Positions 13,101 to 62,973 of a stretch of DNA of 64,000 bases are shown here, piece after piece; the first letter of the stretch is position 1; the number at the start of each line of letters is the position of its first letter. The DNA comes from Amphiscolops sp. MND2022 (taxonomy: Eukaryota): the NCBI GenBank assembly GCA_964187785.1, contig OZ076411.1, positions 34,100,001 to 34,164,000 of the forward strand, in the 5' to 3' direction. A program made the translations under genes and the position numbers. The notes beneath the pieces are model-generated. The model was not told where the DNA came from and made no database searches. It saw nothing but the letters and a program-made list of their open reading frames with translations.

Positions 13101-15629
13101 ATAAGAAAGGAAACAAGATTTGAAAGACATGCATTTTCTTCAGTACTATCTCAAATCCAAAACTGTAATGTCTGCAGTGAATGTATGCAAACAAAGTTTT
13201 GGGGGTAGGGTCGTTGTTTTGAATTTTACCAATTCTAACGGATTTAGTAGGGTTGTAGAAATTTCTTGATGCATTTTGGAGTAGTGTGTGTTTCGTTTTC
13301 ATCATTATTGTTTTCCCCATTTTTCTGTTTAAGCAGATTCAACAGCTCTCTCTGGGAATCTGCAAGTAGGCTAATAATTTTAGAAGTTATTTCCTCTTTC
13401 TAAGCAGTTCTTAGGCCCTTTAAAGTGCTATTTTCAACTCTCGTAGACTTGGCGCGAGAAGACCCCGCTATCAAGACGTCCGGTTCTACTAAACCTCCAT
13501 TTTCAACTGAAATCGGGGAAACTATGCACTCACTTACAATTTGTTGCTTTCCTGAAGAACATTTCTTCTCTTTTGACTCCTCGTTGACATCTTCATGAAA
13601 AGACTTTCAAGTTTGTCGGTTTTGAGTTGACTTTGCAGACTTATAGTTTGGACAAAACAAAGTTGAATTTGATACTAGATCACAGAAGAAATTAACGATT
13701 TTAAATATATGAAGATATATATGTATATACCCTCCTAGCATCATCCAATCACAAAAACGTACTTCAATTTTCCTCAAACAACTAGTAATTTCCTGTACTT
13801 TCGTGGTAAAGTGCACTTAGCTTTCAAATTTGGGTCGACATTTTGTCAAAACATAAGCACAAGATCCATATTCCAATTTTAGTTTTCACCCATAATCATA
13901 TATCATTCCGATGACCTTACTATCTCCTCCCGAGCAGGAAGTAGGTTTTACTTCAACCTATCAAACCGGAAATGTTTCCTGGTTTCACTGCTATGGTTCG
14001 CGGAACATTTGACGCGAAGATGACGATAAAGTGAACAACTAAAACCTCATTTGGAAGTTCAACCTGAGAAAACTGTGACTACTTCCCAAAATTGCAATTT
14101 GATCTTATGCTAGGCAAGAAAAGTACTCAAAAAAATGGGGAAGATGTAATTTTTTTTGCTTAATTAACTTTTATTTTCAATTGAGCACGATATTGATAAG
14201 TTTGGCGGACGTCGTGACGACGTAAATTGGCAACAGGGGTTATGACTATGAAACCCAACATCAGATTTATTTATTAACATATCAACGTTAATAAGAACTT
14301 GCAATGAATATTGCACGACATTATTAGATTTGTTTAAAGCGAAGAAAGTAGAAAATTATCAAGTGGTTTATTTTATAAAAGTGTACAAAACGCTGGTATA
14401 TCCATCTTGTACGAAACTGTAAACTGTGACTTTTGCTTATTGAGTTTTGAAATATTTCGCTGGTAACGTTGGTTCGACGTAAGAGTTTTCTTTCCCTCAT
14501 CTCCTGCATGAATCTACGTAATATAGCCGCAAATTAGAGTTTGTATTGTCGTGTATTTCCTTGCGAAAACGACACATCTTTCAAAGTTAATATCGTTCAA
14601 ATGCTTAATTCATAAATTTGTGACGTTGTGCTGACACGTTTTTATGGCTAGCTATGCAAGCTGCATGGTATGACATAATGCTTACGAAAAAATTGGAATG
14701 AAATTCTAGCTAGTTGCTCTAGCCGTGACGTCGTTAGATTGAAGGGGATTAGCTACGCCATGGCGAGGCGGTGACTTCATCAAGGTATTCTCAATACCGT
14801 CTGCGTTGTGCTGACGTCACAGATATAGTAAAATTGGCCAGCGCTGCCGTGATTGTTTACTCTACAACGGTTTCATCAACCTAATTCGCACCAAATGCTC
14901 GTCAAATCTACTAACAAGCTGCCTTTCTCAGAAAAAGGGTAACGCTTTGACAGCTAGTTTGCAATGAAATTTTCATTTCAGATTTGGCAATGATCTTTTG
15001 AAGACGCGTATCGTAATTGAAATTTCGAATGGAGAATGAGCGTATTTCCGACGTGGCTTAAACGTCTTGGCGGAAATACGTAATTTCATTTTGATCTGTT
15101 CATTTTGGTAGACATTTTTCATTTTAGGTTTTCCAGAATTTGGCTAATATTTCCTCGTAGGTTACATTTTTCTACTGGAAAAGTTTAACAATACCATCTC
15201 GTTGACCTCGACATGCACCCGCCGTGGCCTCTCCGTGCGTAAAACTGAATCGTTTACAGTTTCAACCCAGTCTGGAAGCGGGCTGTGACAAAGATTTTGT
15301 TACTAAACAAATCGTATGGTACTCTAGAATGTACAGGTGAACTCAAACTCAGGTCAGGAGACAGTTGAATCGTATTACAAAAACTTCCGACAGTTGTGAA
15401 GTGCTTTTGAAATATTTTGAGAACTATCAAAAAATGGACTACTGTAGAGTGTTTCTTCTGAAATTCATGTCATTTGATGGGCTGTGGCTGAATAAATCCA
15501 AAATTTCAAAACTGAGAGGCTTAAAGCATCAGCTTTAGATGCAGACAATTGCAATTGAATAATAGATTAGGACCACCTGATTGCTCTTCTTTCAAATATA
15601 ATATTCTTTTGTCATTCTATTTACTTTGC

Positions 15630-15820
15630 TGTCGGAACGTGTACAGTTCTTATCTGACGCTGTACTTGGTTTGCTCCCTTCTCCAACATTGGAGATAACT
15701 TCTCGGTTAGAGCCAATACTAGTCCAGTAAGATCGCTAATGTGTTTTTTCATGTCTATAAAGCGTTGATCGATCGATCTTTGTTCTGAAGTGCAATCAGT
15801 ACGGATAAGATTTCCGTTGT
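15630..15820 (-). mobile_element. Partial copy (191 bp) of the large Gypsy LTR, cut by the duplication breakpoint
   Basis: Matches 20894-21084 and 34379-34569, and is preceded by the same TTTGC flank. Confidence 0.85.
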
Positions 15821-15953
15821 TGCTAATCTTAATACACAGGTCAAAACTACGTCAAGTCTGATAGTTGACTCAACAGGCGATGTGCCTGTTTCTAAATAAA
15901 AATGATTTTCCAGAACAACTACTGTAAATCACGAGGAATGTAATGTAGCATCT

Positions 15954-17359
15954 TGTTTGCCTAAGTATTTCAAGAGTTGTTTTGTTAGAATATGTCATGA
16001 AGTTATTTACAACTCACTAGAAATATTCAGTCGCAAAGTTGTGCTTTTCTTTTTTCCAACTAAACCTCGAAGCCAATACAGGAAACACGTTGACATTTCG
16101 TCACAATGATGAACTTCCTCTGATTTTCCAAGTGAGTCTTAAGCGTAGGGCAATTTTCCTTCCCATATGCAATTTGAATGAGTGACGTTAGGTCAACTCT
16201 AATCAAATGAAGGTGCAAGTGTAGTTGCAATCGATGAAAGTTTTCTGCTGAAGTACTGCGTAATATCTGGTGTGAATTATGAATTACCAAACATTTACGA
16301 TGAATGTGCTTGTTAAGAAAGCAAAATGTTGTTTATCTTCGATGTATCTAAATAAGCTGTGTTTTCCGGTCGTGAGACTTTCGTTGCGTTTCGTTTCAGT
16401 GCATTTTTAGTTGAAAGAGTGATATGTTGTGTTGTAACAAGTACCTAATAGTGTTGCAACATTAAATGTATTTGTGATGATCGGAATATGTCAATGTTCA
16501 GAAGGTGATCTTCTAGCATTATTTGTTTTCCCTTAGCACTTACTTATTTCCTTTTGGACATTTTTTCCTTCCGATTTAGTTGCGTCGCCAATTATGCTTG
16601 CCATTCGTATGTTCCAATTTTCGTTTTTTTCATTTTTGGAATTGAATAATTGTTCACGCCCAGCGTGCTTTCATCGTTCAAAACTCAACTCGACGTTACT
16701 TTTGATGCCATTTTGAGATGAATGAAAAAAACCTCAACAACCGTTACGCATGATTGGCGCAACTAGGAAATTTGATACCTGAATTTTAGACGCTGTTCTG
16801 CAAGGATATGAATCAACAGGACTTTTGGATGAACAAACTTGATTTTGGTTATACCTAGTAATTTTTAGGGGAATAACAAGTGATAGTAGAATGATATAAA
16901 TGCGTTGGATTTGTAACATGAAATCGGTTATTCGAGAGTGATCGCTGTTTACTCTGTTGTTAAAACGACTTCCTTCGGGAATCCAATTTCTTACAAACTC
17001 CTTGTTTCAAGTGAATTTGACGACTAGAAGTCAGAAAAAGGAAAACTGTGGATGAACTAGTCACTGGTGAGTTCGAGGCATCAGGAGCCGAAAATAACTC
17101 TGTTGCGAACCTAGTAGCTAGTCGAAGTGAAACTCTAAAACGTCAACTTGGGATTCTTGACGAGATCAATACGTCACATAGAATCTGATCTCACTAAAAC
17201 ATTAGCAGAAACTCAGAAAAAAACGCTAATACTAATAGCTTCAACTGTAAAGAAAACTTCGGATCCTCAAAGCTTCTGAAACAAGAAACACTTTTATCAC
17301 ACCAACATCTACCCAATAAGAACTAAAATGACTACTAAAAATAATCAAAACAGTCAACA
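15954..17359 (+). mobile_element. Duplicate of the solo LTR (1406 bp) with CATCT TSD
   Basis: TGTT...AACA termini. CATCT at 15949-15953 and 17360-17364. Confidence 0.85.
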
Positions 17360-20300
17360 CATCTAATCTCATCTACCGCTAGTAAATCTACTTTGTCGAT
17401 GGAATTTGTATTCGATTTCATTCAAAGATCTACTTCCGTAAGCTATCGCGTGGTGGCTTCCTGCCACAATGTTATACATAGTCCGGTAGTGCTAGCATCT
17501 GCTGTTCCTATGTTGTCCTTTCCCTTCCCATCGTGTGCTGGATATGGTCCTTCGGTTAACATTGGTTTTTTTTTCCGGAAATCTTTCTGTTGTCTTTCCC
17601 AACAAGTCTGCATGATGGGTTCCCTGTCATTCTGTTTTTCGATCTTGTCCCGATTTTTAAATTTTTTCGAAGTAGTTCTTCTTTTAGAGTATCTCTTTTC
17701 TGTTGAAATGGAATAGTCCGGTTTTCTTTCCATTTTTTGTCGTAGGTAATTTGTTCATCAGTTCAATTGTTTTTTAAATTTCTACTTTTTCCATCGTATG
17801 GTCCCGGAATTTCTTGTCGGTCATTGCGGTCAAGTATTTAGACTTTAATTGTTCTCCAACCGAAAACGTACTGAAACTGCACTCTCTCGATTTCAGTCAG
17901 TCGTCTCTGAAAATTTTTGGGTGTTTCATCTACAGTTTGTTTTGCCCAAAACAACACATAATTGTATGTGTTGCTATTGAGAGGATAGTATTCGGCGGAA
18001 AACCGGAACAATTTGTTTATTTTTCTACTGTGCGGTTCTGTTTTGTATCCGGATCGGGTTATCTTGTAACGTGCTTGGGTCCCACCCTCCAATTGTAATT
18101 GTAATTTTCATAAATAAACTGTTTTTTGCACATCCATCCAGATTCTGCGATGTCTTATACTTTTAATGACCGTGCGCTATCTACTCTATGTTTTCGCTTC
18201 GTTAATTGCCAAAATCTCTCCAGCCACTGTCTTGGTTTGAATAACGGATTTCCCTCCGGTGCCTTTGCTTCTAGATTCAGTAAGGTGTTTTTCTCAGCCG
18301 TCAAAAGTTCGACTCAAAAAACTTGTTTTAAAACTTGGTGGACTGCGCCTTGTTGGATTCTTTGGCTATACTAATAAGAAAGGAAACAAGATTTGAAAGA
18401 CATGCATTTTCTTCAGTACTATCTCAAATCCAAAACTGTAATGTCTGCAGTGAATGTATGCAAACAAAGTTTTGAGGGTAGGGTCGTTGTTTTGAATTTT
18501 ACCAATTCTAAAGGATTTAGTAGGGTTGTAGAAATTTCTTGATGCATTTTGGAGTAGTGTGTGTTTCGTTTTCATCATTATTGTTTTCCCCATTTTTCTG
18601 TTTAAGCAGATTAAACAGCTCTCTCTGGGAATCTGCAAGTAGGCTAATAATCTTAGAAGTTATTTCCTCTTTCTAAGCAGTTCTTAGGCCCTTTAAAGTG
18701 CTATTTTCAACTCTCGGAGACTTGGCGCGAGAAGACCCCGCTATCATGACGTCCGGTTCTACTAAACCTCCATTTTCAACTGAAATCGGGGAAACTATGC
18801 ACTCACCTACAATTTGTTGCTTTCCTGAAGAACATTTCTTCTCTTTTGACTCTTCGTTGACATCTTCATGAAATGGTATTCAAGTTTGTCGGTTTTGAAT
18901 TGACTTTGCAGACTTATAGTTTGGACAAAACAAAGTTGAATTTGATACTAGATCACAGAAGAAATTAACGATTTTAATTAATTGAAGATAAATATGTATA
19001 TACCCTCCTAGCATCATCCAATCACAATAGCGTACTTCAATTTTCCTCAAACAACTAGTAATTTCCTGTACTTTTGTGGTAAAGTGCACTTAGCTTTCAA
19101 ATTTGGGTCGACATTTTGTCAAAACATAAGCACAAGATCCATATTCCAATTTTAGTTTTCACCCATAATCATATATCATTCCGATGACCTTTTTATCTCC
19201 TCCCGAGCAGGAAGTAGGTTTTACTTCAACCTATCAAACCGGAAATGTTTCCTGGTTTCACTGCTATGGTTCGCGGGAAGTTTGACGCGGAGATGACGAT
19301 AAAGTGAACTACTAAAACCTCATTTAGAAGTTCAACCTGAGAAAATTGTGACTACTTCCCAAAATTGCAATTTGATCTTATGCTAGGCAAGAAAAGTACT
19401 CAAAAAATGGGGAAGATGTAGTTTTTTTGCCTAACTAACTTTTATTTTCAATTGAGCACGATATTGATAAGTTTGGCGGACGTCGTGACGACGTAAATTG
19501 GCAACAGGGGCTATGACTATGAAACACAACATCAGATTTATTTATTAACATATCAACGTTAAAAAGAACTTGCAATGAATATTGCACGACATTATTAGAT
19601 TTGTTTAAAGCGAAGAAAGTAGAAAATTATCAAGTGTTTATTTTATAAAAGTGTACAAAACGCTGGTATATCCATCTTGTACGAAACTGTAAACTGTGAC
19701 TTTTGCTTATTGAGTTTTGAAATATTTCGCTGGTAACGTTGGTTCGACGTAAGAGTGTTCTTTCCCTCATCTCCTGCATGAATCTACGTAATATAGCCGC
19801 AAATTAGAGTTTGTATTGTCGTGTATTTCCTTGCGAAAACGACACATCTTTCAAAGTTAATATCGTTCAAATGCTTGATTCATAAATTTGTGACGTTGTG
19901 CTGACACGTTTTTATGGCTAGTTAAGCAAGCTGCATGGTATGACATAATGCTTACGAAAAAATTGGAATGAAATTCTAGCTAGTTGCTCTAGCCGTGACG
20001 TCGTTAGATTGAAGGGGATTAGCTACGCCATGGCGAGGCGGTGACATCATCAAGGTATTCTCAATACCGTCTGCGTTGTGCTGACGTCACAGATATAGTA
20101 AAACTGGCCAGCGCTGCCGTGATTGTTTACTCAACAACAGTTTCATCAACCTAATTCGCACTAATTGCTCGTCAAATCTACTAACAAGCTGCCTTTCTCA
20201 GAAAAAGGGTAACGCTTTGACCGCTAGTTTGCAATGAAATTTCAGATTTGGAAATGATCTTTTGAAGAGGCGTATCGTAATTGAATTTTCGAAAGGAGAA

Positions 20301-20893
20301 TGAGCGTATTTCCGACGTGACTTAAACGTCTTGGCGGAAATACGTAATTTCATTTTGATCTGTTCATTTTGGTAGACATTTTTCATTTTAGGTTTTCCAG
20401 AATTTGGCTAATATTTCCTCGTAGGTTACATTTTTCTACTGGAAAAGTTTAACAATACCATCTCGTTGACCTCGACATGCACCCGCCGTGGCCTCTCCGT
20501 GCGTAAAACTGAATCGTTTACAGTTTCAACCCAGTCTGGAAGCGGGCTGTGACAAAGATTTTGTTACTAAACAAATCGTATGGTACTCTAGAATGTACAG
20601 GTGAACTCAAACTCAGGTCAGGAGACAGTTGAATCGTATTACAAAAACTTCCGACAGTTGTGAAGTGCTTTTGAAATATTTTGAGAACTATCAAGAAATG
20701 GACTACTGTAGAGTGTTTCTTCTGAAATTCATGTCATTTGATGGGCTGTGGCTGAATAAATCCAAAATTTCAAAACTGAGAGGCTTAAAGCATCGGCTTT
20801 AGGTGCAGACAATTGCAATTGAATAATACATTAGGACCACCTGATTGCTCTTCTTTCAGTTATAATATTCTTTTGTCATTCTATTTACTTTGC

Positions 20894-21995
20894 TGTCGGA
20901 ACGTGTACAGTTCTTATCTGACGCTGTACTTGGTTTGCTCCCTTCTCCAAAACTGGAGATAACTTCTCAGTTAGAGCCAATACTAGTCCAGTAAGATCGC
21001 TAATGTGTTTATTCATGTCTATAAAGCGTTGATCGATCGATCTTTGTTCTGAAATGCAATCAGTACGGATCAGATTTCCCTTGTCTAACTCATCAATTTG
21101 GTCTCTGGAAAGGACCTCAGGGACACTATATTCACTTTCGGTATCACTATTTCCATCATGCCTATCCATTCCTCTCATGAATACTGGAATAGAACTTTCT
21201 GTTCGGGAACGCGCGTTGACCATTGTGAAAAATAATTGGAGTTTTAAGATTTTATTGTTTCGATGGAGGTTAGTTTAAATAGCTAAATGAGTGAAATTCG
21301 CTCGTATATTTCAAGTATGTAGGTGGTAACCAATCGTCAAGGTACAAACGATTCTACTGGTAGCACCTATTTGCTTCGTGTTAATTTTGCGACGTTGGTC
21401 ACGTGACCACATCAACCAATCATATTGTGGTATTCATTCATACCTTGGTAGGTGATTGCGCAATTTGCGTCTAAACTTGTTATAGCACAAGAATGGTGTG
21501 CAATTGTGTTACTATGGCTACATGACTCACTAATTGGTACACTTGGTAAGATGATGATGGTAGTATGGGCTCATCATAGCACGGTAATAATAATACGTTC
21601 ACTATATACATATATGTAGTAATGCACTGTAATGTTAATGACGTTGCGCATATAGCTCGTTGGTTGGGTGATGGTACTGATTGTACTTGTGAGCACCAAA
21701 TGAATGAAGTAAAAACTAATGATGATACATTAACTACGTCATCGGCTAAATGTTACGAGATTGATTTTAATGAGCATATGTAAAAAGGGTTGGTTATCGT
21801 TAATAAATAGTTGGAACTGTTCGGGATTAAATATAGTAGATGCATGTAAGAAGTTTGAGTTTTGTTTGCTTGATGTAGTTTTCTCGACTACGTTCCCTTC
21901 TTTCAGTTTCCAATCATGTTTTCGTCTAATACCATCTTCCTTCTAGATGTCGTGTGGTTAATTTCATTCAATATACTCATGCATCAGGCATGACA
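20894..21995 (-). repeat. 3' LTR (1102 bp) of the large Gypsy
   Basis: TG...CA termini. High similarity to 34379-35477. Contains the ORF MVNARSRTESSIP (21223 to 20885). Confidence 0.88.
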
Positions 21996-22012
21996 CTCCG
22001 GGTCCTTTTTTG
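21996..22012 (-). promoter_or_regulatory. Polypurine-tract-like site upstream of the 3' LTR
   Basis: The minus strand reads ...CAAAAAAGGACCCGGAG|TGTCATG directly against the LTR start. Confidence 0.55.
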
Positions 22013-23417
22013 AAAGAGAACATGTGGCGGGGGTGGTGTGTAGTTGCTGCTAATTGTGAGATAGGCTGGATTCTGTCTTTCAATTAGCGAAGTTGAACTC
22101 GTCTTTGGTCGTTCGTTGGAAGTAGCAGTGACGTTGTTATAGCAACCACATTAGCGGTGGCGAGTTGACTTCATGGTTGAAAGTAGTCGAATTGTTTGGT
22201 ACTTTAGCTAGGTTATGGCTGGTGAGAGGGAGAAAATGTTAGTCGCGCGTTGAATATTCCACTTCGGTAAGGAGTAAATATAGAGTCGATGTGGCGACTA
22301 TAGCCACGTCATCCAGTCGTGCGCGTTGTTTGCAGGAAGAGAGTGAGAGTAAGAATGAATTGGCCGGAAATTAATCTAACGTGGCAGCGTGATATAATTA
22401 CTCTGTTTATTCGGTAACTGTTCGGAAGTAAAATGCAGTGGAATATCGTGCGCTTTGTCATTACGATACACATCCCGGTACGAACTAGCAGAATCCTGCT
22501 AGTTCGATTTTTGTCCAATCAGAGAGCGAATACTTTCGTGGTGTAAGAAATGAATATAACATGGTGGAAGTTAGTCAAAACTTTGACTAACTTCCACTTA
22601 TTGCAAGTATAGCGATCTGCAATTTGCAAAAAGTGGAAGTTAGTCAAAGTTTTGACCGAATTACGAAAAAGTATTTTTGGACTAACTTCCACTTTTCACT
22701 AACTACGTGCTTTGACTAGTTTACACTATTTTCCATTACGCGCGTTGACACAGCTACACCGTTGAAGCATAGACCGTCTTGACTAACTTACGCTGAATGA
22801 TCATTTTACAGATTACACAGATTAGGCTGCGTGACTGAAATCCAATTTACCGCTACGTGTATCGTAATGGTAAACAAATCTTCGTCGATGCCAAATACAA
22901 TTCTGATATAGGTAGTGAAGTGATTACATTATTTGTCGTTTGCAGAAAGAGGCAGCCGATGTAGGTGTTGCGATAAACTGGATGGAGGTACAAATTAATA
23001 ATAAATCCGTTGTTTTTCTTTTGCGTAATAAAACTGGAGATATACCTTTTGTCCTTGTGGTGATTTGGGGTAAGTTGGAAAAATTTTAGCTCTGGTATTT
23101 CAGTTCCGTTTCTCTTTTTAATTTGTTTTGTTTTTTATAATATCAATGTACGGTTAGGTAGTGACGATCGTAAAGTTTCGAATCTACAAATTCTTTGACA
23201 GGAAAAATTTTTTGTTGAAGTATAATTTCCAGTTGTGGTTGGCCACACTCTTTGAGAATTTTTGAAGTCTTCTGTATGAGGTAATGTGGTTGATCAAGTC
23301 ACATCATACTCGGATGAAGATGCTGAAATCTGGTAGATCGCAATTCACTCCATTTGCCGTAGATTGAAAGTTATTGTGCTAGCGATTGTAGTTTTTGTTA
23401 TCGTCTGAATATTATCG

Positions 23418-26400
23418 ATGGAGCCATCGGATGAAGAAATTGCCTCACTTGATCAAGCAGCAGAAAGTGTTTTGTCGGAGTTGTCTAGTTTGAGCCATTC
23501 TTCTGGTGGAGATGATTTGGCGGCAGGAGCTGAGGACGTTCTTGCGGAAGGCGCTGTCTCAGTGTGTTGCCAGTTCGCTGAACGCCTGAATGCCACCAAC
23601 GTTGATTCTGCGGTGACTCTATTGGAGATAGCTTTATCCACCGAATTTCGTAAATGGTTTTCATTATATTTTTTGTAGTTGTTGTTTTCTACCTTCGCGA
23701 GAAGGTTTGGGTAACACTTCAAGGCAATTTGTCTACAATGGGATGACGATAAGGGGTAGGGCACATACCGTCTCTTTGTTTCGTAAGCACTTCCCGGGAT
23801 CAATTGCCTCGGTTTGAAGGTTAGGGTCGTTTAATTCGTATGAAATCGTTGTTCATGTCTACATTGATATGTTCTAGAGGAACTGAGTCTGGTGGAAATT
23901 GTAAGGGTACTGCGCGGGATGCTGCGGTCTGGTGATCCGTCGCCGGGCACATCTGGTGCTGTTGCAGTGGAGCCCAGACTGGAAAGTGATCGTCCAACTT
24001 CAACTAGTAACTACCGTGATAACGTAATAGTGGATTGTATTTTAACTCAGTTTGTCATTGGTCATCGGGTTGGGGGGTTAGGGGTCCCTTGTAGATTGTA
24101 GTAACGTGGTTGGGTAGCCTCATCCAAATCGTTAATGATGTGTGAGGTCGCTGTTTAGGTGTCCCTTCCCGTGATTCTATGTGCATGGAGCCTTTGCTCG
24201 CTTCGATCAATGAGTTTGAAAAGAAGGTGTCGCATGTTGTAAAGTGACTGTAGAATCGTCTCTGGGACAACTGGGCACTGTAGGTGCTATGGCAATTGAA
24301 GACTTCGTGGACCGGCTGAAGAGTATCGTGGGCAATGTAGTCAATGTGGAGAAGGTAACTGGTTCGTCAGCCGTTGGTGGTACTGGTATTGTTCAGACTC
24401 CAGTAGTGGCACCGCCTACTAATTCGGTTACTGTCTGTGAGGGTGGGTCAGATGCCAGTTCCGCTATGCCCTCAGTTTTTGGAGACGCCCGTTCCGTAAT
24501 GACATCTGGTCTGCCTGAGACTACTGCTGCGAAACCTGGTAAGAATCTCATAAGATCATATGACGGGTTTTAGTAATACGGGTTATAACACTAGTTTTTT
24601 TAACAGTTTCTTTGTACCGAAGTTCTCTTCAGCAGCAGAGGTCTAGGAAGTCTTGATTTTGTTTCAGCTCGGGCCCGGAAAATCAAGACGCTAAGACCGT
24701 CATACTTTGTGTCCGGTGTCGTTGGAACCTTCGTGGGCTTCCCGAGGCGGAAGCGTGTCGTTGATGGGTATGCTCGTTGTCTGCTATGCAGGGCAGACCT
24801 TAGTATCGCAGGTCGCGGTTTGTCCTCGCTGTGGGACCATTGAAAGGGAGTCGAGCATACTAGACTCGAACAGAAATACCGCATCATGACGCAAAGACTA
24901 CTGTTAGACAAAAGTTGCCGNNNNNNNNNNNNNNNNNNNNNNNNNNNNNNNNNNNNNNNNNNNNNNNNNNNNNNNNNNNNNNNNNNNNNNNNNNNNNNNN
25001 NNNNNNNNNNNNNNNNNNNNNNNNNNNNNNNNNNNNNNNNNNNNNNNNNNNNNNNNNNNNNNNNNNNNNNNNNNNNNNNNNNNNNNNNNNNNNNNNNNNN
25101 NNNNNNNNNNNNNNNNNNNNAAGGAGACGTATTGGTTGGAAAGGCAGTTGCTGCTTCCCTTGCATCGGACACCCCATTAGTTGTTGGGATGGTTACTGCC
25201 AGAACTGTATTTGATGAGATTCGACGTCAGTTTCTAGTTGAATTCAGTGGCCTGGATCCCTTAAGTTTTCGGGTGCGGTTGATGCCGTCAGTACGAGAGC
25301 GTTTCTTGGACCGTATGCCGAACTTGCGTCAGGTGAGTAAAAGAAATTTCTGTACCTTCATTTTTTTGTTTTTGGACGTGAGATTTGAGAAGAGGTTGGT
25401 TCGAGAGACTAGGGGGTTTTATAATACATGTTGTTTTTTCAATGTAAGTGTAGACCAAGACGTGGTGAGTCTAAGATCGTTATTGTAGTCGTGCTAGTAA
25501 ATAGCGTGTGTGTGTTTGTTTTCTAGTATATACGATCTGGTGGAGACGACATTTTCCAGTTAGCGAAAGTGTGTGGTGAGGTGGTCGAGCAGTGGAACGA
25601 ACTAGCGCTACCTTTTGGGAACACGCGGCCTGCCGTAACTTCAGAACTGATAGTGGTGATGCCTCTTGAGAAACAGGTGTTCGAGGATGCTTTGGTTCGG
25701 CCTCGATTTGCGATCCTCCGACTAGTTTTGGACCTAAGTGAGTAGCCTGTCGTTGTGTTTTGCCAACAGGGGGGTTAGTGATGTGATGTTATTAGCATCC
25801 TGTACTTGCAATGGTTTTTTCAGGATTCCTCGCGAGTGTAGCTTGTTTCTTGAAGTTTTAATATGTTGTTTTAGTGGTGAAGTACTGTAGGCAATTATGT
25901 GGGCAACGACGTGATCGAAGGCTGGTTATAGAGCGTGAGCTACCACAGATCATCCGCGGGTTAATGGAGTTTGTGTACCCAGCAGCAAGGATTCCAGCTG
26001 AGTACGAAGTCACAGCTTTATTGAAACCATTCGAATGCGAGTGTGCTAATGTCGACATCAATTTATATCGCTTGCACTTTGGACAGGTCTTTCGCTTCGA
26101 TATTAGCTCACAGTTACCATTCTTGTACAAATCCGTCCAGAAGTTGCTGGTTGCGTTGTGTAGAGGATTGACTACAATATGGCAACGTGTGTGGCCGAAT
26201 TACTTAAGCTTGACGCCGTTCGATCCTACTCTTATCCACAGCGGATCAGATGATCGTCGTGTCGATGCGTTAGTGGAGACGTGTGCCGTATTGACGAGTC
26301 ATGGATTGCTGGACATAGGAAGTGGCGGTACAGTACAACAACAAAACCATGACGTCACGCAGTATTTCAAGAGGAAGTGGATAGCACTGCAAGATGATGT

Positions 26401-27265
26401 ACCCGTATGTGAGGACATAATTTCAATGTGGATGTCCTACCCTCATTGGGCGCGTTGTGGTCAGCTGCGACAAGTTTTGGTTTTGGTTGTAACGATTACA
26501 GTTACTGGGACTTACGAGGCTAATTTTGATGATGAATCCCTTACGGCATCGGATACGGTTACCTTACTATCGAGTTTACACCTAGTGAGGAGCTGGCTTG
26601 CAGATTCGTTTGCGGGGCAGACACGAAAAAGGCTGCGAGGACTACTGCGTCTAGTGGAGTCAACTGACATGCTAGTCTCAAGGTTGACAGATGCGGTACG
26701 TGGGAAACCCTGGGACCAACTGCTGAAGGTAGGACTCGATCAGACTCTGGAGCGTAACGTTGGCATGTTGACCAATGACCTTAGCTCTGCTGTTGTACCG
26801 CTGATCGACGATTACAGGTCCGCAGCCGAGTTAAATGTTATGGAGGTTGTGACGACAAGCCCTATTCGACCATCGCCTAGTCCGAAAGTAAAGCGTTCTG
26901 TCGGGCCGACTAGAGGCAGAGGAGCTCGCAACCAAGCTGCTGTGCAGATTCCAATTGGGACTAGGGAAGTTGGCAAAAGCGGAAAAACGAGTAAGAAGTG
27001 TGGACGCCAATCTGAAGCTGGGAAGGACGGTCAAGGCCCGAGTATTCGCGGGCATCGTTGGAGACGAACAGATGGGAAGCCGCGTGGTGCTAAGACCCTG
27101 GTTTTGTCTAGTTGTACAAGCAGTCCTATATTACGAAGCCAGGAAAAGTCAGCGCCGAAACGAAAAACGAAGTGGACAGTTGTCGAATCCTCAGACGAAG
27201 ACTATTGGTTTTTACACTGTCATCGAAAACTTGTAACCCTATTGGTTAAAAAAGAAACTTCTTAG
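23418..27265 (+). pseudogene. Antisense, spliced cargo gene inside the Gypsy element; BED-like zinc finger plus a divergent hAT-transposase-like body (~1000 codons, at least 2 lesions)
   Basis: Proposed exons: 23418-23649, 23878-24006, 24159-24538, 24668-25332 (spans the gap), 25527-25737, 25875-27265. All five GT-AG introns (129-228 nt) are phase-compatible (1,1,1,0,1). There is a 1-nt frameshift near 24243 and an in-frame TGA at 24841. CLLC-x16-H-x5-H at 24778-24858. The last exon is a 463-codon open frame. Confidence 0.6.
24921..25120. other. Assembly gap (200 N)
   Basis: Run of N. The true length is unknown. Confidence 1.
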
Positions 27266-28899
27266 TGTGAAAGAAAAACTACTTCATTTTGCTAACTGTT
27301 TTGTTATTGCTCAATGCTATGAACTTGTTTTCCTCAATTTTATGATGGTGGTTTTATGCTTGGTTGCCATTGATGTTTTTACGAGTTTATATGTTTTGTT
27401 ATCATTGCATCGGGATTCACTCATTTATTTTTTCTTCTGCTGGCACCATAACCATAATGGAATTTACATGTTGCCTATGATATCTCAATTTTTTACATGT
27501 GAACTCCATTAGCTGGATTCAATTTGTTAGGTCGGTAGGCTCAGTTTTGCAATTCGTTCAGGTTCTGGTAGAGTAGTCGCTCGCGCAACTACCATTTGAA
27601 TGCTCTCACTCACCAAGCTCCACCTGTAAGTCAGCGTTGTTCTTTTTAATAGCTTACATATGACACGGGTGGAAACTTGGTGGGTGGGTGGAGCCGCTCT
27701 GCTCCTACAGATGATTTGAACGTGTTAAGTGGTTGCTTTTATACTACTCTAGTCGGTTTTTTGACAGGTGTTTACTAACATAAGTGTCATTCTGAGGTGT
27801 CGATCATTTTGCACTTTACATGTATTGTTTTTATCGTGAAATTAAGCGTTAGTTCTGACGTCGTCATCGCTGATGTGTGTCGTGAGACGTTATCACTCGC
27901 GACGGGTGTCAAATGTTACCGTCAATTTAATGGAAAATGGGTTTCCCCACGTCCAATAAACCTTTTGGCGAGGGGTGGTGTGTGCCATCCTTTGCTTCGA
28001 ATTTTGGTCATGTGGTGGGAGTGACTGCTTGTTTCATTACGTTGTTCTTTCTGACGCGAGGCGAAGCCTACGAATCACCAGTAAGAACAAAGGCGTCACG
28101 ACTTAAAAGTCGAGTAAAGGTGACGACTGCATGTAACTGTCCTTAAGGAGGAGTTTTTTTTGCTTTCAGTTCATTGGGAAAAACCCATACAAAACTAACA
28201 CCGAATCCACTTGCTAAAGAGCCAGCTTCATCTGAAGGTTTGACCAACCACACAGACGCGCTTTTGATGACGCACCCACACAGCCGAACCACATCATGAT
28301 TATTCGGGGCGGAAGTGTGAGACTAGGTTCTGGTGACGTAACTTAAATGAGTCGGCTAGTTCTTTTACATTCTCGATTGTGAACAGTTACGTGTTTGAAA
28401 GTGACTTAGTTTGGTTGATTCAGTGTTGGTGGATACAGAATTACAAAGCAATTCCTTTGAATTCGTGTGGTTGGAGTTTTTTGTGAATTGCATAATTTAG
28501 TAGCTCGTTTGCATGTGTTTTACATGTACTTAACAATTTCCGGTTAGAGTGATGTAGTGTATATGACTGCATTACATGTATTTATTTTCTCGCTCAGCTG
28601 TCTCGGTAGAGATTAACAATTTCTCTGCCGGTAAAGTCGAATATGGAGGACAGTGAGTCGTCACTGAATGGTGTAAAATAAATAGAATAATTCAATGGTA
28701 TGATTGGTACATGTGGTGGTATAGACTACATTGTATTGATTGCTTGTATTTTTTTTGGCTTGAAGAATTACGTTGCATGAATTTTAAAAGTGCGGGTTTT
28801 GCTTGCAGTTCATGAACAAGGAAGTTATCAAACATTTTAGGTACAGGTGCTTCGCGAAGGCTATATCTGGTATTATTGTTTCATGTGATCGGTTGAGAC

Positions 28900-30330
28900 G
28901 TTTAGGCAGATGATGTGGTCGATGCCGCATCATTATTCGACAGAATTTTGCTGTTCCGACTCGTCGGATTGGGTTTCAGGTTCAGTCCGGCGCGTACAGT
29001 CAGTGTGGACGGTTTCAGGCAGCGGGTTATGCAGAGATGACACCTCATGAACCCGTTTGTGTTCGTAATAAATTGTTCCATGCTCATAATCGTTGGTTTC
29101 AGTTTCGTTTGTGTCGAGGTCACATGTGTTTTCAGCTGCCGGTGATTGTTCGGGTGCAGGCAGATTATTGTTCAATTTTGTCTGATCGTCAATTGCGTCG
29201 GGGTCACTATAATGTCGGGCTGCATCGTCTTGTATGTCTTCAATCGGTTCATGTGCTACGAATGGGCGGGGCCGCATTCTATGTACACACTGCGTTCTGA
29301 AGGTACCGATTTTTCTGACGGTATAGTTCGATTGCGTCAAGACCTTAACGACCTTGTAAGGTCCTTCCCATTTGAAGGAGTTAAAGGGGATCTTTTCTGA
29401 TTGCGTGTTAATTTTAGGGTTCAGTAAAAAGACAAAGTCGTTTAATTTTAATGGTGATGCTTGAGCTTTGCGATCGTAGTACGCTTTTTACTTATGGAAG
29501 GCTCGGATAATGTTGGTATGCGTTTCTTTGAATTTGGCGTTCCGATTGTCCACTAACGACTGTGTATCAGTGGCAATTTTCCGTGAACTGAGAGGGTTGC
29601 CAAATTTTAGGTCTAGTGCGTTGTATGACACGCGGCCGTGGAAAACTTCGGTCGGTGAACATTTCAGTGTTTGGTGGTGTTGTGTGCCATGACGGCGAGA
29701 TTGACGTATCGGTCCCACTGTGGGCGGTCTGCAGAGACGTTTATTTTCAGAATTTGTTTTAAACGTTGATGTGACCTTTCGATCATCCCAATAGTTTGGG
29801 CTTGTTTGATTGTCGCGTGGGAGACTTTGATTCCGGCTTTGTTCATCAGTTCTGTTATGACATGTGATGTGAAGGCAGAGCCTTTGTCAGTGATGATGTG
29901 CTTCGGTACATACGCATGTTTCGTGAAAATGTCTAGCAGAGCGTCAACGACGGATTTCGTATCAGGTTTGCGTATCGGAATAGCAAACAGGTATCGTGAG
30001 AAGTAGTCACAGGCTGTCAGAATGTGTGAGTACCCATTAGATTGTGGTAACTCACCGACGAGGTCAATTTCCAGAACATCTTCAGCACCGTTGCAGGGGT
30101 CATAGATTGGTTCAAGTGGTGGTGTTACCGAGCTGGGTTTTACAGGTTTCGCTTTAATACAGTCTTGATAGCTGTTAACAAAATTTGAAATTTGTCGGCT
30201 TAGTTCGGAATGTAGTACCTTTTCCTGAGTTCACCTAACATTTTTGAAGCTCCAGGGTGTCCCTGCATGGGGTCTCCATGCATCGTCCTGATTATGTCTT
30301 CCGTAGTTTCTGGAGGAACTACAAATTGTC
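28900..30330 (-). pseudogene. pol: Gypsy integrase (frameshifted) and C-terminal tail
   Basis: Minus strand: HGVSKNHPGTP-like zinc-binding region, IDLVGELPQSNG, KHIITDKGSAF, HAT..HAQTIGMIERSHQRLKQIL, WDRYVNLAVMAHNT. No chromodomain seen. Confidence 0.85.
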
Positions 30331-30577
30331 GGTAAGCTAAGTTTCCTACGTTGTCGAAAAACTGCCTGTACAACACGTTGTTGACGTCTTCAAGTCTTTT
30401 ACGGTTTTTGAAAAGTTTTTGGAAAAAGGTACTTGCAAAGTTAACTAGGTTTGGAGGGGTTTCTTGCGCAGTAAGGATCCCAATTACCCGTTGAACGTCA
30501 CTGTTTTCGCCTTGAGCCTTAACAATCTCTGAATTCCCCGAAGGGCATACCTGATTTACTGTGTGAACCTGGTTCCG

Positions 30578-31900
30578 TTAGTAGAATCGGGTGAAGAACA
30601 GTGTTGGATCAGAGGGCGTCACAAATGGTTGAACCTGGGTCTTGATATCGTCAATGCGTCTACGATATTTGTCGTCGTCTTCGTGACACCATTGAGGGAA
30701 CATCGCCAGGAGTGACTGCATTACTGGGTTCGGTGATGTTGTTGTGTCGGGTACATTCGTCTCGTCTGGAATGTATTCTTCCTCCTCATCATCCTGCTTG
30801 GGCGTTTTTGAGACCAGATCGATTTCGACTCTGAAAACTGGTATTTCATCATGTAGTTTGAGGTGGATTCTGTCCTTAGGGTGGATTTCGATTCTGGACA
30901 GGTAGACTGCTGCTGGATTTTTGACACCAGCATTATGGGCCAGAACGAAGTCGAATTGGAGAGCTTGATCACAGTAGTTCCATATTTTTGGTGGTATTCG
31001 TTTAGACTGGAAGAATCTGGTGAGTGCCTTGTTATCAGTCATGACAATTGTTGGTTTCTTCCTTCCCCACAGGATATGGGCGAACTCGTCAAATGCGAAG
31101 TCCATGGCCAGGAATTCTTTCGCGTACACCGTGAGTGACATTTGGCCCTCGGTGAACCTTTGAGATCCAAAGGCTACTGGTGCATATGACTTCGTTGGTC
31201 CATCGTTGATTTCAGTGTAGTCTTCGATCAGAAGAACGTAGCAGGCTGCGTGCTCGCTAGCATCGCACATTATCACTAGTTGTTTGTCTGGAAGTGGTAA
31301 TCGCAGGGACATTTTGGCAGCATTTGCGAGGTTCTCATTGATGTCGAATATGGCGTCTTTGTGGATCTGGGTGAGTTCGTACTTGACATCTTTCTGTAAC
31401 AACTTGTATAGCGGAACCAGTTTTTCAGCTAGCCTCGGGATGTACTGACGGTAGAACTGTACATATCCAATATACCGTTGTAGTGACTTCACAGACGTCG
31501 GAAGTTTGATGTTCTTCAGAAATTTGTCAATTTTTTTTCGATGGGCGCGATGCCTTTGGTAGTGATGCTTTTGCTAAGGAATTCGATTTCGGGGTGACCA
31601 AAAGCACACTTCGCCATTGACAGCTTTAGACCGGCCTGTCTGATTTTGGTGAATACTGCTTCAATGTTGTTGACTAGCTCTTCGGCAGTGTTGGCAGCAA
31701 TGCCGATGTCGTCAACGTATTGGGCGCATTTGTCTGCCTTGACCAAGGGGTCAAAGTACTCACGGACAGTACTGTTGAAGGCTGACAGGGACCGGTTGAA
31801 GCCTTGGGCTAACCTGAGGAAGGCCAAGGTCCTACTTCCAAAGTTGAACGCAAGCAACTGAATTGACTGCTCATCCGCCATCTGGAGTGTTTGGGAGTCA
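30578..31900 (-). pseudogene. pol: Gypsy RT (N-terminal half deleted) and RNase H
   Basis: RLAQGFNRSLSAF, CAQYVDDIGIA, KSLQRYIGYVQFYRQYIP, IMCDASEHA, KEFLA, VMTDNKAL. The junction at ~31890 removes the start of RT. Confidence 0.88.
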
Positions 31901-32230
31901 ATTTTATCTTGAATTCGGTGTCGATCCCGATGTCCAGTCTGTGTCGCACGAAGGTGTCATGGTACTTGACCAATAGTGCCTCAATTTCTTGTTTTTTATG
32001 AAGGTTCAGTATTGATTGTTCCCACTTGAAGTTCGCCAAGAATTCTTGTCTTTCTTCCTTATTTGATGTTGGGTCCAGTTTTTCTTCAGCTCTGAGTTTG
32101 ACGATCTCGTCGTAGATGCGTCTCTCAATCAAGATGTGGTTCAGAACTGGCGTGGCCTCGTCTGGGTATTGCGTGATCAGATTGAGTTGGTGGCTCGTCA
32201 TCGGTTGCAGATTGTTTGCCTGTTTTGGAG

Positions 32231-33012
32231 TCATAATTTTGAATGACGCCACACTGCTGTCTCCACATTGATCGTGATCTGGTAATCTAGTGGGTTGGTG
32301 ATCTGCACATGCGATCGTCCCTCTCGGGTCTCGCTGAGAGCCGGAGATACCAGTAAGTGTGAACGCCTCTCGAAGGCGTGTAGTCCTTCAACAGTGCCAG
32401 TGTTGTCTCCCAGATCTCGTTCAAATACCACTGGGACGAACACTTGTTGGTTGGGTTGGATTACCATTTTCTGAGTCGTTTTCAGTTCGTGAAGTTTACT
32501 TTTGAAGTTCCTGTTGACAGGGCGTAGTTGGAGGGTGATATGTTGTTGGCTAAGTCCAGGGTTACTGAGTACTTCTTGAAGAACGACATTCCGAAGAGGA
32601 CATTTCCCATAGTTGGGAGGACCATGAATGTTTCTTCGAAGACCCTGCCGCCAATTAAGAATCGTAGTAACACCTGCTTCCTGACGGGAACACTGCTGCC
32701 ATTGGCGATTTGGACTTTGAACTCTGGGGCGGGGAGTTCTTGGAGGAGGGCTGCTGGGTGTCCTGAAAGAATTCGTCGGAGTTCTGCTTCCGACAGTACG
32801 CTCTGGATCGCGCCAGTGTCAAGGAGACCAAAATTTTCGTACTCACGAAATTGGAGAGGCACATATAGCATCTTGTCCTTTCTGTTGAGCTGCAATGTGG
32901 CACTCAACTGTCTGATTTCGTATTTCGGTTTCTTCGGTGGGTTGTGATGTTTGGGGGATGAAGGCTGATTGTCAGCGTTTGGTAGCTCAGGTAGGGTGCT
33001 GTCTTGACACAC
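32231..33012 (-). pseudogene. pol: Gypsy aspartic protease followed by a beta-rich PR-RT spacer domain
   Basis: GLLDTGAIQSVLSE and VLFGMSFFKKY in ORF 32482-33012. Spacer VIQPNQQVFVPV...LLVSPALS...VQITNP at 32231-32467. Confidence 0.85.
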
Positions 33013-33229
33013 TGGATTGATGTTGTCATATTCGGGTCCTCGTTTCGTTTCTCTTTGTTTGATTGTATAGTTGTCAGTGGAATGTCTTGTGATAACGAAG
33101 TTTGTAGTCTCTTTAGTATAGGTTGAAGGACGGGACTGCCACCCCGTGTAGTTTTTAGTTGTTGGTCGTTTTTGAGTAGTAGTCGGTTGTCGTTGATCTT
33201 GGTGCGCACTTTTGGTTTGTGAATTTGGA

Positions 33230-34250
33230 TGACGTGGCTTTAGAAGTTTTTTGGGTGCTCCTCGTCATCATGTCGCTCAGTTTCCTCAGCATTGTCGGTT
33301 TCATCGTTGGTGGTGTGGGACAGTTCATTGGTAGTGTAGACCCTGTTGTTGGTCTGTCTGAAATCTTTTCGAAATTGTTTATTCTCCTCTGTCGACTGCT
33401 TAGAATACGGGACGCTGCGGTAGGCTGACGTCGTCGTATTTCTGTAGTAGCAGTCCCGGGCGGAGTGTCCCACTTTGCCACAGATTTGGCACACCAGTTT
33501 GGGGTTGTATTTGGGTTTGATTTCCTGGGTGTGAGTTGGTTGGCTGGCTGTTGTTGGTTGTGATTGGTTGTTTTGTTATGCGCTTCCTCTCTGAGGCGCT
33601 TTCTGCATTCAGCCCACTCATGTCCAGTGATTCCACAGTGGCGGCATTGATCGTCGAATTATCGTTTTGTCTCTCTGTTTTGGGTTGGTTGGGAGTTGGA
33701 CGACGCGGGTGCTGCTACATTGGGTTGTGGTGCGCTTATTTGATTGAATGGTTGCGCTGTAGTTGTATTTGGAATGAGCTGAGCGTATTGACATCTGCGT
33801 TGGACAAATGTCCGGATTTCCTCCATGGATGCGTCATGTTTCCCTGCCATGGCCAATTCATTTTGCATCTGGACGGGGAGTTTGGCGAATAGGAACGTTT
33901 CTGTGAGATCGCTTGATTTGTCTCCAAAGGCTTGTTTTGCCACTTTCTTAAATTTGTTCAGAAAGTCGTTGAACGTCTCTGCTGACGGGTCGTAGCGCAT
34001 TTGGTCAAATTTGTACTTAGCTACTTCCTTCAGATCTTCCTTCGCATATTCTTTCTTGAAGTAGCGTAGAACTTGGGCGAGTGTAGTTTGGCTTGTCATT
34101 TTTAAGGATTGCCAGAATTCGATGGCGTCGTCTCGCAGCAGGCTCTGAAAACATGTCAGTTTCTGCTCTTCTGAGAACTTGTGCTGATGCGGTCTGAGGT
34201 GATTGAGCCGCAAGTGCTCGAATTCGTTAAATTTTTCCCGATTAATATAT
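33230..34250 (-). pseudogene. gag: Gypsy gag (5'-truncated) with a CCHC knuckle
   Basis: EKFNEFEHLRLNHLRPHQHKFSEEQKLTCFQSLLRDDAIEFWQ...; CQICGKVGHSARDC at ~33490. Confidence 0.85.
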
Positions 34251-34378
34251 GTTTATTAATCTGAGACGATTAAAGCATCGGCTTTAGGTGCAGACAATTG
34301 CAATTGAATAACAGATTACGACCACTTGATTGCTCTTCTTTCAATTATAATATTCTTTTGTCATTCTATTTACTTTGC

Positions 34379-35477
34379 TGTCGGAACGTGTACAGTTCTT
34401 ATCTGACGCTATACTTGGTTTGCTCCCTTCTCCAACATTGGAGATAACTTCTCGATTAGAGCCAATACTAGTCCAGTAAGATCGCTATTGTGTTTATTCA
34501 TGTCTATAAAGCGTTGATCGATCGATCTTTGTTCTGAAGTGCAATCAGTACGGATAAGACTTCCGTTGTCTAACTCATCAATTGGGTCTCTGGAAAGGAC
34601 CTCAGGGACACTATATTCACTTTCGGTATCACTATTTCCATCATGCCTAACCATTCCTCTCATGAATACTGGAATAGAACGTTCTGTTCGGGAACGCGCG
34701 TTGACCATTGTGAAAAATAATTAGAGTTTTAAGGTTTTATTGTTTCGATGGAGGTTAGTTTATATAGCTAAATGAGTGAAATTCGCTCGTATATTTCAAG
34801 TATGTAGGTGGTAACCAATCGTCAAGGTACAAACTATTCTATTGGTAGCACATATTTGCTTCGTGTTAGTTATGCGACGTTGGTCACGTGACCACATCAA
34901 CCAATCATATTGTGGTATTCATTCACACCTTGGTAGGTGATTGCGCAATTTGTGTCTAAACTTGTTATAGCACAGGAATGGTGTGCAATCGTGTTACTAT
35001 GGCTACATGACTCACTAATTGGTACACTTGGTAATATGATGATGGTAGTATGGGCTCATCATAGCACGGTAAAAATAATACGTTCACTATATACATATAT
35101 GTAGTAATGCACTGTAATGTTAATGACGTTGCGCATATAGCTCGTTGGTTGGGTAATGGTACTGATTGTACTTTGTGAGCACCAAATGAATGAAGTAAAA
35201 ACTAATGATGATACATTAACTACGTCATCGGCTAAATGTTACGAGGTTGATTTTAATGAGTATATGTAAAAAGGGTTGGTTATCGTTATTAAATAGTTGG
35301 AACTGTTCGAGATTAAATATAGTAGATGCATGTAGGAAGTTTGAGTTTTATTTGCTTGATGCAGTTTTCTCGACTACGTTCCCTTCTTTCAGTTTCCAAT
35401 CAAGTTTTCGTCTAATACCATCTTCCTTCTAGATGTCGTGTGGTTAAGTTTAATATACTCATGCGTCAGGCATGACA
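34379..35477 (-). repeat. 5' LTR (1099 bp) of the large Gypsy
   Basis: TG...CA termini. TTTGC on both sides. Contains the ORF MVNARSRTERSIP (34708 to 34409). Confidence 0.88.
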
Positions 35478-35545
35478 TTTGCCATGGGAATACTCATGTG
35501 AAGATGATTTCATGTGCAGAATATGTGGTTAGGAGACAGTGTGCC

Positions 35546-42190: not shown

Positions 42191-42289
42191 ATTTCAGTCC
42201 CATATAGCAGAATTCAAATTACTCTCTTTCAGTGTTGCTACAGCCAAAATGTGTGGAACTTGATTGATTTGAAGATGTTAGCAACTTTA

Positions 42290-43645
42290 TTGGCTCGCTT
42301 CGCTCCCTTCGCCAAGTAGAAACATTGAGACTTGGCCATATGGCACGTCGCTCCCATTCGCTTCGCTCCTGCATTTAGGGCACTAGAGGTATGTGACCAT
42401 AGCTGACTACAATATCGTAATGTTCGATTGACGCCATTGTGTGTACAAGTACTACTCTCAGCATATATTTTTGTTTAATTAAATTTGAAAATGATTATAA
42501 AGGCATGAAATCTTTATAAATTGGAAACTTTGAGATTTTTGTCATTTTCGGTGTCAGTTTGAGACGTTTTCATCTAGAAAAACGCGCTAAACTATTCGGA
42601 AAAGACTACTGGACAACCAACCCTTTCCTTGATGACCTTTTAAAACATTCCAATCCACGAAGTCTGTCAAAACGTTGACAAAAAATGCGTAAATGCTTTG
42701 AAAAATAGTAAATTGATGTGATTTTTGTCATTTTCGCCGTCAATTTTTTTGAAAACAGCAATTATCTCTTCGGACAAGCCTATCAAACAACAAAATAGTA
42801 CCATGTTGAACGTTTTCAACATTCTAATCCGCGAAGACTATGGAAATTGTGACAAAAACTGCAAAAAATATAAAAAAATGGGAAATTTTTGCAATTTAGT
42901 CTTTTCTGGGTCCTTCTCTTTCCAGAATAACCGCATTTATCTCTTCATAAACGATGAATGGAGAACAAATTTTTGCCTTGTTGAACCTATTCAACATTCT
43001 AATTCTCAACATCTATCGGAAAATTGACAAAAATTGCATTAAAACATTTTAAAAAATTGAAATGTTCGAAAATGTTCTTATTTTTGGGTTTCACTTGTGA
43101 GTCGTTCTGGGCTCCTTGGGGTCAGCTAAAAAAGTCCAGAAATCTCCACATATACGTATCGCACGAAGCTAAATTTATGTGAGTTGAATTCTTTTGGTTA
43201 CAGCATTAGAGTTGAAAATAAACTTGGTTCTCGGCAAATTTTGTAAAAAAAACCTTTTGATTTAAATATTTTGCTTTCCATATGAAAAATGGGCAGAAAA
43301 TGAAAATAAGAAAAATAAGTGCTGTTACAGTCTATATATATGGAACTTGATTTTTTTGAAGAGGTTAGCATATTTGTTGTAGGGCTCGTGGCTTCGTTCC
43401 CTTCGCCAAGTAGCAACATTGAGACATTGCCATATGGCACGTCGCTTCGCTTCGCTCCTGCATTTAGGGCACTAGATGTATGCGACCATAGTTGACTACA
43501 ATATCGTAATTTTCGATTGACGCTATTGTGTTTACAAATGCTATTCCTAGCATAAATTTTTGTCTAACTAAATTCGAAATTAATAAAAATGCATAAAATC
43601 TTTATAAATGAGACAATTTTGAGACTTTTGTCATTTTCGGTGTAT
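42290..43645 (-). repeat. Helitron/Helentron-like repeat: inverted copy of the 3150-4450 family, with its end module present twice
   Basis: The module CTTCG(C/T)TCCCTTCGCCAAGTAG...GTCGCT..CTTCGCTCCTGCATTTAGGGCACTAG occurs at ~42300 and ~43390. The internal TTTTGTCATTTTCGGTGTCA units are the reverse complement of the 184-bp array. Confidence 0.6.
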
Positions 43646-62900: not shown

Positions 62901-62973
62901 ACAGAAAGGAAACGACACTTTCAAGATAGTACTCTACTACTGAAGACTCATCATTTTTGAGGCTATGACTAGC

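Follow-up and report, generated by a model that had tools for sequence, protein, structure and literature searches.

A 64,000-nucleotide stretch of DNA from Amphiscolops sp. MND2022 (assembly GCA_964187785.1, contig OZ076411.1, positions 34,100,001 to 34,164,000; the window in what follows) contains a Ty3/gypsy retrotransposon on its minus strand which carries, on the plus strand and thus antisense to the element, an additional gene located between pol and the 3' long terminal repeat (LTR). The initial annotation described this gene, referred to here as the cargo, as a DNA-transposon gene inside a retrotransposon, and the arrangement recurs in many copies. Analysis of the sequences indicates that the cargo very probably derives from a hAT transposase, that its product is almost certainly catalytically dead, and that divergent cargo cores reassort as a block between near-identical retrotransposon backbones. 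An overall explanation in which the cargo encodes a hAT-derived, non-cutting DNA-binding protein that keeps the element active against silencing has roughly an even chance of being correct.

The cargo core comprises four exons (finger, d, e and last) behind variable N-terminal exons, and the copies fall into two deep clades, A, to which the window copy belongs, and B. The parts of the gene in the window are as follows.

22230..22460, plus strand: conserved non-coding block and candidate promoter of the cargo, from sequence identity among clade A elements
23418..23649, plus strand: first coding exon (acidic, helical N-terminus), with a homologous exon and donor in other copies
23775..24010, plus strand: two small N-terminal exons, bounds approximate, placed from conserved peptides
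24190..24538, plus strand: exon c, helical and then low-complexity, with its frame broken in the window copy
24668..24920, plus strand: visible part of the BED-finger exon (C-x2-C-x16-H-x5-H), with a premature TGA at 24841-24843
24921..25120, unstranded: assembly gap N200, which corresponds to ~750 bp in other copies
25121..25332, plus strand: visible 3' part of exon d (RNase H-like core, then the beginning of a putative helical insertion), with conserved splice signals
25527..25737, plus strand: exon e (putative helical insertion domain with an invariant W), with a conserved acceptor offset
25875..27265, plus strand: last exon, a probable hAT C-terminal half to ~26590, beyond which come a helical region specific to the family and a basic tail containing an SSDE motif

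Intron positions are common to both clades, as are the splice signals, with AG preceding exon d at 54 of 55 loci, GT following it at 58 of 58, and the acceptor of exon e placed at one offset in 56 of 58. Exons d and e are fused without an intron in two public proteins, P0063 and P0094. In other copies, the ~750 bp at the gap position hold the remainder of the finger exon, together with an intron and the four opening strands of the RNase H-like core. Introns can survive reverse transcription only when they lie antisense to the genomic RNA, which accounts for the antisense orientation of the cargo. Next to the 3' LTR lies the 230-bp non-coding block, for which 19 other elements were tested: ten, all from clade A, match it at 73-87% identity, and it is absent from the clade B elements in that set. 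The basic tail of the last exon is present in clade A, where a C-terminal hydrophobic-SSDE motif was found, with a loose pattern, in 26 of 33 long frames; this motif may resemble SUMO-interacting motifs. A sequence search revealed no longer homologues of the last exon, and a PxVxL-like motif in the finger exon was dropped as a candidate, since it is not retained in divergent rows.

The cargo gene of the window copy is a pseudogene. Among the loci fetched to survey core exchange (see below), however, core frames are free of stops in their aligned parts at 23 of the 26 that hold a core, and substitution patterns across the family indicate that the gene is under purifying selection. Median ratios of non-synonymous to synonymous divergence (dN/dS), calculated at dS 0.1-0.5, were 0.086 for the finger exon, 0.23 for exon d, 0.11 for exon e and 0.20 for the last exon (7-12 pairs per exon), compared to 0.089 for integrase (21 pairs). 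For exon e, the values at dS 0.5-1.5 (dN/dS 0.90) were set aside, since this bin mixes clade A-B pairs near saturation.

Evidence for hAT ancestry comes from alignment of the cargo exons with two sets of reference sequences, namely 134 Ac/ZBED4-type proteins (reference 1) and 178 rows from metagenome contigs representing the subgroup of hATs with a PHSNA-ERxFS C-terminus (reference 2), the latter having been selected through a C-terminal motif absent from the cargo. When the four exon profiles were aligned in gene order to reference 2, a score of 111.7 bits over 553 columns was obtained (null 55-64), a value that was not reached in any of 600 shuffles of columns or of 25- and 50-column blocks, and the true exon order was the best of 24. 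Omission of the finger exon left a score of 83.1, compared to 50.6 ± 5.8. The alignment spans template positions 35-680 of 683, and the exons abut at 167/168, 346/347 and 407/408 with no gap at the borders. The corresponding score against the Ac/ZBED4-type reference was 79.3, compared to 46.4, and both hAT profiles align over nearly their full length, beginning at the BED finger. Control alignments with the element's own reverse transcriptase-RNase H and integrase gave Z values of -1.0 and -1.2, respectively, while the two hAT references aligned to each other gave 18.8. Searches for DUF4371 and P-element families returned nothing, so that a P-element profile is not among the controls. Comparisons made with hhalign placed the finger (P 6e-4), the core (0.008, Ac-type reference) and exon e (0.008, reference 2) each at the expected position, and the finger profile matches real hAT BED domains at E 1.7e-5. 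A register in which DVISLWLS was set on the hAT motif DVxTRWNS was rejected, as exon e occupies that position in the full alignment. Structural prediction is consistent with these alignments, in that AlphaFold modelled exon d of another copy as an RNase H-like core (predicted local distance difference test score, pLDDT, 66-80), for which Foldseek returned Hermes at rank 5 (E 3.8e-3), the 361 aligned columns being the longest alignment in the top ten.

A number of results weigh against a hAT origin. The ordered-exon alignment was made with the author's own profile-alignment script, and reference 2 was chosen after the cargo had been seen. With the Ac-type reference the true exon order ranked only third, 0.7 bit below two others; the last exon alone was not significant with hhalign (P 0.19-0.41), nor was a comparison with a 14-row hAT alignment. 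Pfam scans of the cargo, the check proposed in the initial annotation, yielded nothing above threshold: no scanned protein matched PF05699, and zf-BED matches were confined to E 0.027-0.079. Searches of the Protein Data Bank with four cargo profiles gave a best E of 0.05, to unrelated proteins, and ESM Atlas gave no usable match for the last exon. The AlphaFold model of the last exon was poor (pLDDT 39), and fold searches made with it were uninformative (best Z 4.8). The proposed comparison with the Hermes structure was likewise borne out only in part, since Hermes, at Z 5.4 (VIA; root-mean-square deviation 4.7, 113 residues aligned), is one of many RNase H-like folds recovered and lies below unrelated members. 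The BED-finger and hAT origin originally suggested is favoured by the collinear end-to-end profile alignment, by weak matches in the expected places and by the predicted core, although Pfam, pairwise and fold tests are each weak.

The motifs quoted in the initial annotation are all present in the window, with YARCLLC...WDH*KGVEH in the exon starting at 24668, and VTALLKPFECEC, LSLTPFDP, DVTQYF, EDIISMW and QLRQV...YEANF in a single frame (25862-27265). The suggestion that the TGA at 24841-24843 is a mutated Trp codon was confirmed, W being present in 11 of 11 copies of alignment A2; a non-redundant set of 51 rows has W at this position in 39 and C in 9, with the C rows coming from clade B. The finger ligands are conserved in 41 of 46 (C), 46 of 49 (C), 44 of 50 (H) and 44 of 53 (H) rows. 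Several of the C-terminal assignments proved sound: FDP is conserved (D 43/53, P 48/53) and maps near the equivalent hAT motif, while the ExxxY motif (E in 39 and D in 8 of 48 rows), the W (42/52) and the L..lA..lL and final F motifs all map correctly in the hAT alignment. Conversely, LLKPF cannot be equated with LxPFxxxT, as it is neither conserved (P 14/48, F 3/48) nor found at that site in the full alignment, and the E of YEANF is not the catalytic glutamate and is conserved in only 8 of 50 rows, despite conservation of the surrounding Y..[D/N]F residues (Y 42/50, F 42/50).

Catalytic aspartates had not been identified in the window copy because the assembly gap at 24921-25120 removes the start of the RNase H-like core. 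The triad has, however, been lost family-wide as opposed to merely being hidden, and the suggested check of DDE conservation across copies gave a negative answer. At the end of strand 1, Asp is present in at most 1 of ~50 rows, with D at a later turn position in 16 of 52. The second site has E in 32 and D in 11 of 66 rows, and the third has D in 32, N in 10 and E in 1 of 50. No conserved C or H corresponding to the CxxH motif was found in exon d columns 105-116. In Kat1, both the DDE residues and CxxH are required for activity, according to the available text of PMC4763223, and, since these residues are not conserved in the cargo, its predicted product is classified as a hAT-derived pseudo-transposase and is not filed as a hAT transposase. 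Transposon ends are absent also: neither a scan of the whole window (≥40 nt) nor scans of two flanks detected inverted repeats bracketing the gene. The cargo sits within LTRs associated with a 5-bp target duplication, without a duplication of the hAT-type 8 bp. hAT transposons have terminal inverted repeats and an 8-bp target duplication.

Two other origins for the cargo were considered. It might be a nested hAT, active or recently dead, that is riding along neutrally in the retrotransposon, as the broken window copy and the acidic residue at two of the three catalytic positions in many clade A rows could suggest. This explanation is largely refuted and retains very little probability, however, given that the first Asp and CxxH are absent, that clade B lacks the acidic sites, and that purifying selection, introns common to both clades, a fixed position and the lack of inverted repeats bracketing the gene in the two scanned flanks are contrary to it. 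Derivation from a Mutator/IS256-like DDE transposase, or from a host protein of RNase H fold to which a zinc finger was added, is improbable, though somewhat less so. ESM Atlas features match Mutator/IS256/ISL3 transposases (0.82, no more than a lead), Hermes does not stand out in fold searches, and a control profile of Mutator-like elements (12 rows) gave Z 4.0-4.7, all of which tell against the hAT reading. The control alignment is, though, out of register, with the cargo core falling on the N-terminus of the Mutator-like proteins and exon d alone scoring Z -0.4, whereas the two hAT profiles extend near full length from the BED finger onward.

The exchange of cargo cores is seen most directly in a comparison of loci L202 and L204, whose elements match at 93-100% identity outside a ~3.3-kb block of 54-70% identity that extends from the finger exon to just beyond the stop codon. 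Synonymous divergence between these loci is 0.02-0.04 in reverse transcriptase and integrase but is saturated in the cargo core. To survey clade B, 28 loci were fetched across identity bands, a mode of sampling that does not yield allele frequencies, and 25 were complete (L368, L370 and L374 were dropped for want of a core or integrase). Twenty-one of the 25 belong to one integrase cluster, with a median integrase identity of 97% for the clade B backbone, yet the cores form eight clusters with a median pair identity of 65%. Of 35 pairs in which integrase and N-terminal exon are both near-identical, 19 have divergent cores, and the opposite pattern occurs in 13 pairs. Close examination of four pairs placed the upstream breakpoints within or close to the intron that precedes the finger exon. 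In clade A the exchange follows the same trend, as between L048 and L047. Within each clade the finger is 89-91% identical, near the value for integrase (89-97%), whereas the rest of the core is 51-74% identical.

Searches of the 1.07-Gb assembly returned at least 127, 132, 150 and 151 scored matches from 858, 952, 1308 and 2808 first-look candidates, respectively, these being lower bounds as opposed to copy numbers. Clade B differs from clade A with ~66% identity in reverse transcriptase and ~20-30% in the core exons, but in both clades there are intact copies in which the LTRs are 99.5-100% identical, the gag and pol frames are open and the cargo occupies the same position. Gag or pol lies on the strand opposite the cargo in 17 of 20 loci examined. 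A profile search of 1.84 billion proteins identified 195 exon-sized relatives, and because one of the ten checked has a best match of only 31% in the host genome, the family probably extends beyond the host assembly; scanning metagenome data with the finger yielded no relative. Several observations on individual copies were made also. Three cargo copies with identical scores lie ~22.3 kb apart as a tandem array (G000:C3:56944802, 56967183 and 56989491). In clade B (L202:1200-1890 and relatives) a single long acidic, Pro/Ser/Thr-rich exon with conserved ends takes the place of the helical N-terminal exons, and reassorts independently of the core. Separately, a metagenome hAT transposase (L259:260-2959) has an N-terminal extension that presumably resembles an OTU protease motif.

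The retrotransposon that carries the cargo in the window is made up as follows.

20894-35477, minus strand: whole Ty3/gypsy element, from its LTR pair, 5-bp target duplication and protease-reverse transcriptase-RNase H-integrase order
20894..21995, minus strand: 3' LTR (TG...CA), with a purine-rich tract ahead of it on the minus strand
28755..33264, minus strand: pol remnant (protease, reverse transcriptase, RNase H, integrase), interrupted by stops and frameshifts, part of reverse transcriptase being deleted
33243..34243, minus strand: gag remnant, with the primer-binding site and part of gag replaced by a copy of flanking DNA
34379..35477, minus strand: 5' LTR, from comparison of the LTR pair

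The LTRs are 96.4% identical and the element is flanked by a 5-bp target duplication, TTTGC, at 20889-20893 and 35478-35482. The features expected of Ty3/gypsy elements (LTRs, purine tract, domain order) are present with the exception of the primer-binding site, which has been lost, together with part of gag, through replacement by a 122-bp copy of flanking DNA at 34258-34378. With this loss, and with the stops, frameshifts and deletion in gag/pol, the window copy of the element is dead. The same 122-bp flank occurs at the end of the 5.27-kb unit of a tandem duplication at 10545-21084 (97.9% identical), in which the end of the unit consists of the flank and the first 190 bp of the LTR; the duplication is either a rearrangement or an assembly artefact. 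A ~420-bp insertion at 22454-22874 resembles a miniature inverted-repeat transposable element, having imperfect inverted ends of 27 bp and further inverted repeats inside; it is present in the window copy but absent from the close copy L031, and has no other match among the fetched loci. Elsewhere in the window are a BEL/Pao-type LTR element on the minus strand (45457-53860; DUF5641, a trace of Peptidase_A17, LTRs ~88% identical), frames resembling those of long interspersed nuclear elements (57437-63940; zf-CCHC, endonuclease, reverse transcriptase) in an unusual pairing with flanking 970-bp direct repeats of 95% identity, and two arrays of 150-185-bp repeats (3149-4381 and 42231-43643) in opposite orientation, 39 kb apart.

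With regard to function, a finger that is conserved, an active site that has been lost and a body that varies would fit a non-cutting DNA-binding protein in conflict with a changing partner. In the favoured scheme, an ancestral element would have taken up a hAT gene once, in reverse orientation, and the cargo would be transcribed from its own promoter adjoining the 3' LTR. Its product may oligomerise and read short DNA repeats via the finger, as Hermes does, the BED domains of which bind short subterminal repeats from an oligomer (available text of PMC10368747). By binding the element's own DNA the protein could keep the element active in the face of host silencing, while conflict with sister elements or host factors would drive diversification of the protein body and N-terminal exon. 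There is precedent in that transposases can activate cognate copies, and TnpA is derived from a transposase, although retrotransposons are not mentioned in the available text of the source (bioRxiv 10.64898/2026.08.24.746577). That the cargo is an element-encoded activator or anti-silencing factor is put at, or a little short of, an even chance. Two points count against it: no repeated binding motif was shown within the element, and cores swap while the LTR and promoter stay the same, which would not accord with core-specific recognition of own DNA such as that of VANC. A broader formulation, in which a retrotransposon has domesticated a whole transposase as a chromatin regulator and maintains it under balancing selection in the form of a recombining cassette with multiple alleles, serving as an anti-silencing or self/non-self locus, is tentative and could well be wrong.

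Two rival functions draw on the same observations. The dead transposase might oligomerise only with its own allele, and so exclude or poison sister elements or active host hATs, with rare alleles being favoured. Eight core alleles of ~65% identity on a backbone with 97% median integrase identity, the divergent cores of the 19 of 35 pairs noted above, a protein body that varies while the finger does not, and the many open hAT frames in the genome are all in keeping with such self/non-self interference. It is nonetheless unlikely, as the hAT and BED loci sampled from the genome included no close hAT donor or target, and the cargo is probably too diverged for mixed oligomers with genome hATs to form. 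Less probable still is that the protein helps integration, by binding element cDNA or host chromatin and tethering the integrase complex to chosen sites, or by aiding nuclear entry. A finger as conserved as integrase, the basic tail in clade A and the fact that the Pfam scan reported no chromodomain on the window integrase frames would accord with this, as would the similar roles suggested for plant antisense open reading frames (ORFs) in the available text of PMC7264820; however, cores have been exchanged freely against near-identical integrases, with no sign of tight co-evolution.

Antisense extra ORFs are already known from plant gypsy elements; what is new here is a cargo that is very probably hAT-derived, contains introns and is exchanged as a block. 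The ORFs of the plant Tat/Retand group (Grande gene23, RIRE2, Retand TRP28) resemble the cargo in lying antisense between pol and the 3' LTR. They are kept in most copies, and a promoter of their own and a nuclear role have been proposed (available text of PMC7264820 and PMC11963269), while their origin is described, within the available text of PMC7264820, as mostly unknown. TRP28 (PF04195) is a flowering-plant domain, and PF04195 is not among the Pfam matches of the cargo, which differs from the plant ORFs in its multiple introns, its traceable whole-hAT origin and its exchange as a cassette. With hAT transposases (Hermes, Kat1 and the PHSNA-ERxFS subgroup) the cargo shares a CCHH BED-type finger and core and, by the ordered alignment over ~645 residues, probably the helical insertion and order of C-terminal motifs, but it lacks conserved DDE/CxxH residues and terminal inverted repeats, has extra N-terminal exons and a C-terminal tail, and moves inside a retrotransposon. 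TnpA of Spm and VANC of VANDAL are, as far as the sources' available text goes, element-carried accessory DNA-binding proteins, as is proposed for the cargo, and TnpA is transposase-derived; catalytic loss recurs in domesticated transposases such as FAR1 and MUSTANG (available text of PMC13547354 and bioRxiv 10.64898/2026.08.24.746577). These proteins serve DNA transposons or the host, whereas the cargo, the activity of which is putative, would have crossed from class II to class I. The ORF3 genes of bdelloid LTR retrotransposons (GDSL, DEDDy) are likewise captured extra genes in animal LTR elements, and the words transposase and intron are absent from the main text of that paper (PMC5408684). 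In searches of openly accessible literature listings and the openings of abstracts, no hAT-derived gene in an LTR element appeared.

One antisense extra gene of an LTR element would gain a traceable ancestry, in which a class II transposase became accessory to a class I element. The family includes young copies, its finger is very strongly conserved, and backbones that barely differ have naturally swapped alleles; these features amount to built-in controls, such that the idea of a retrotransposon carrying its own transposase-derived anti-silencing or exclusion factor becomes directly testable.

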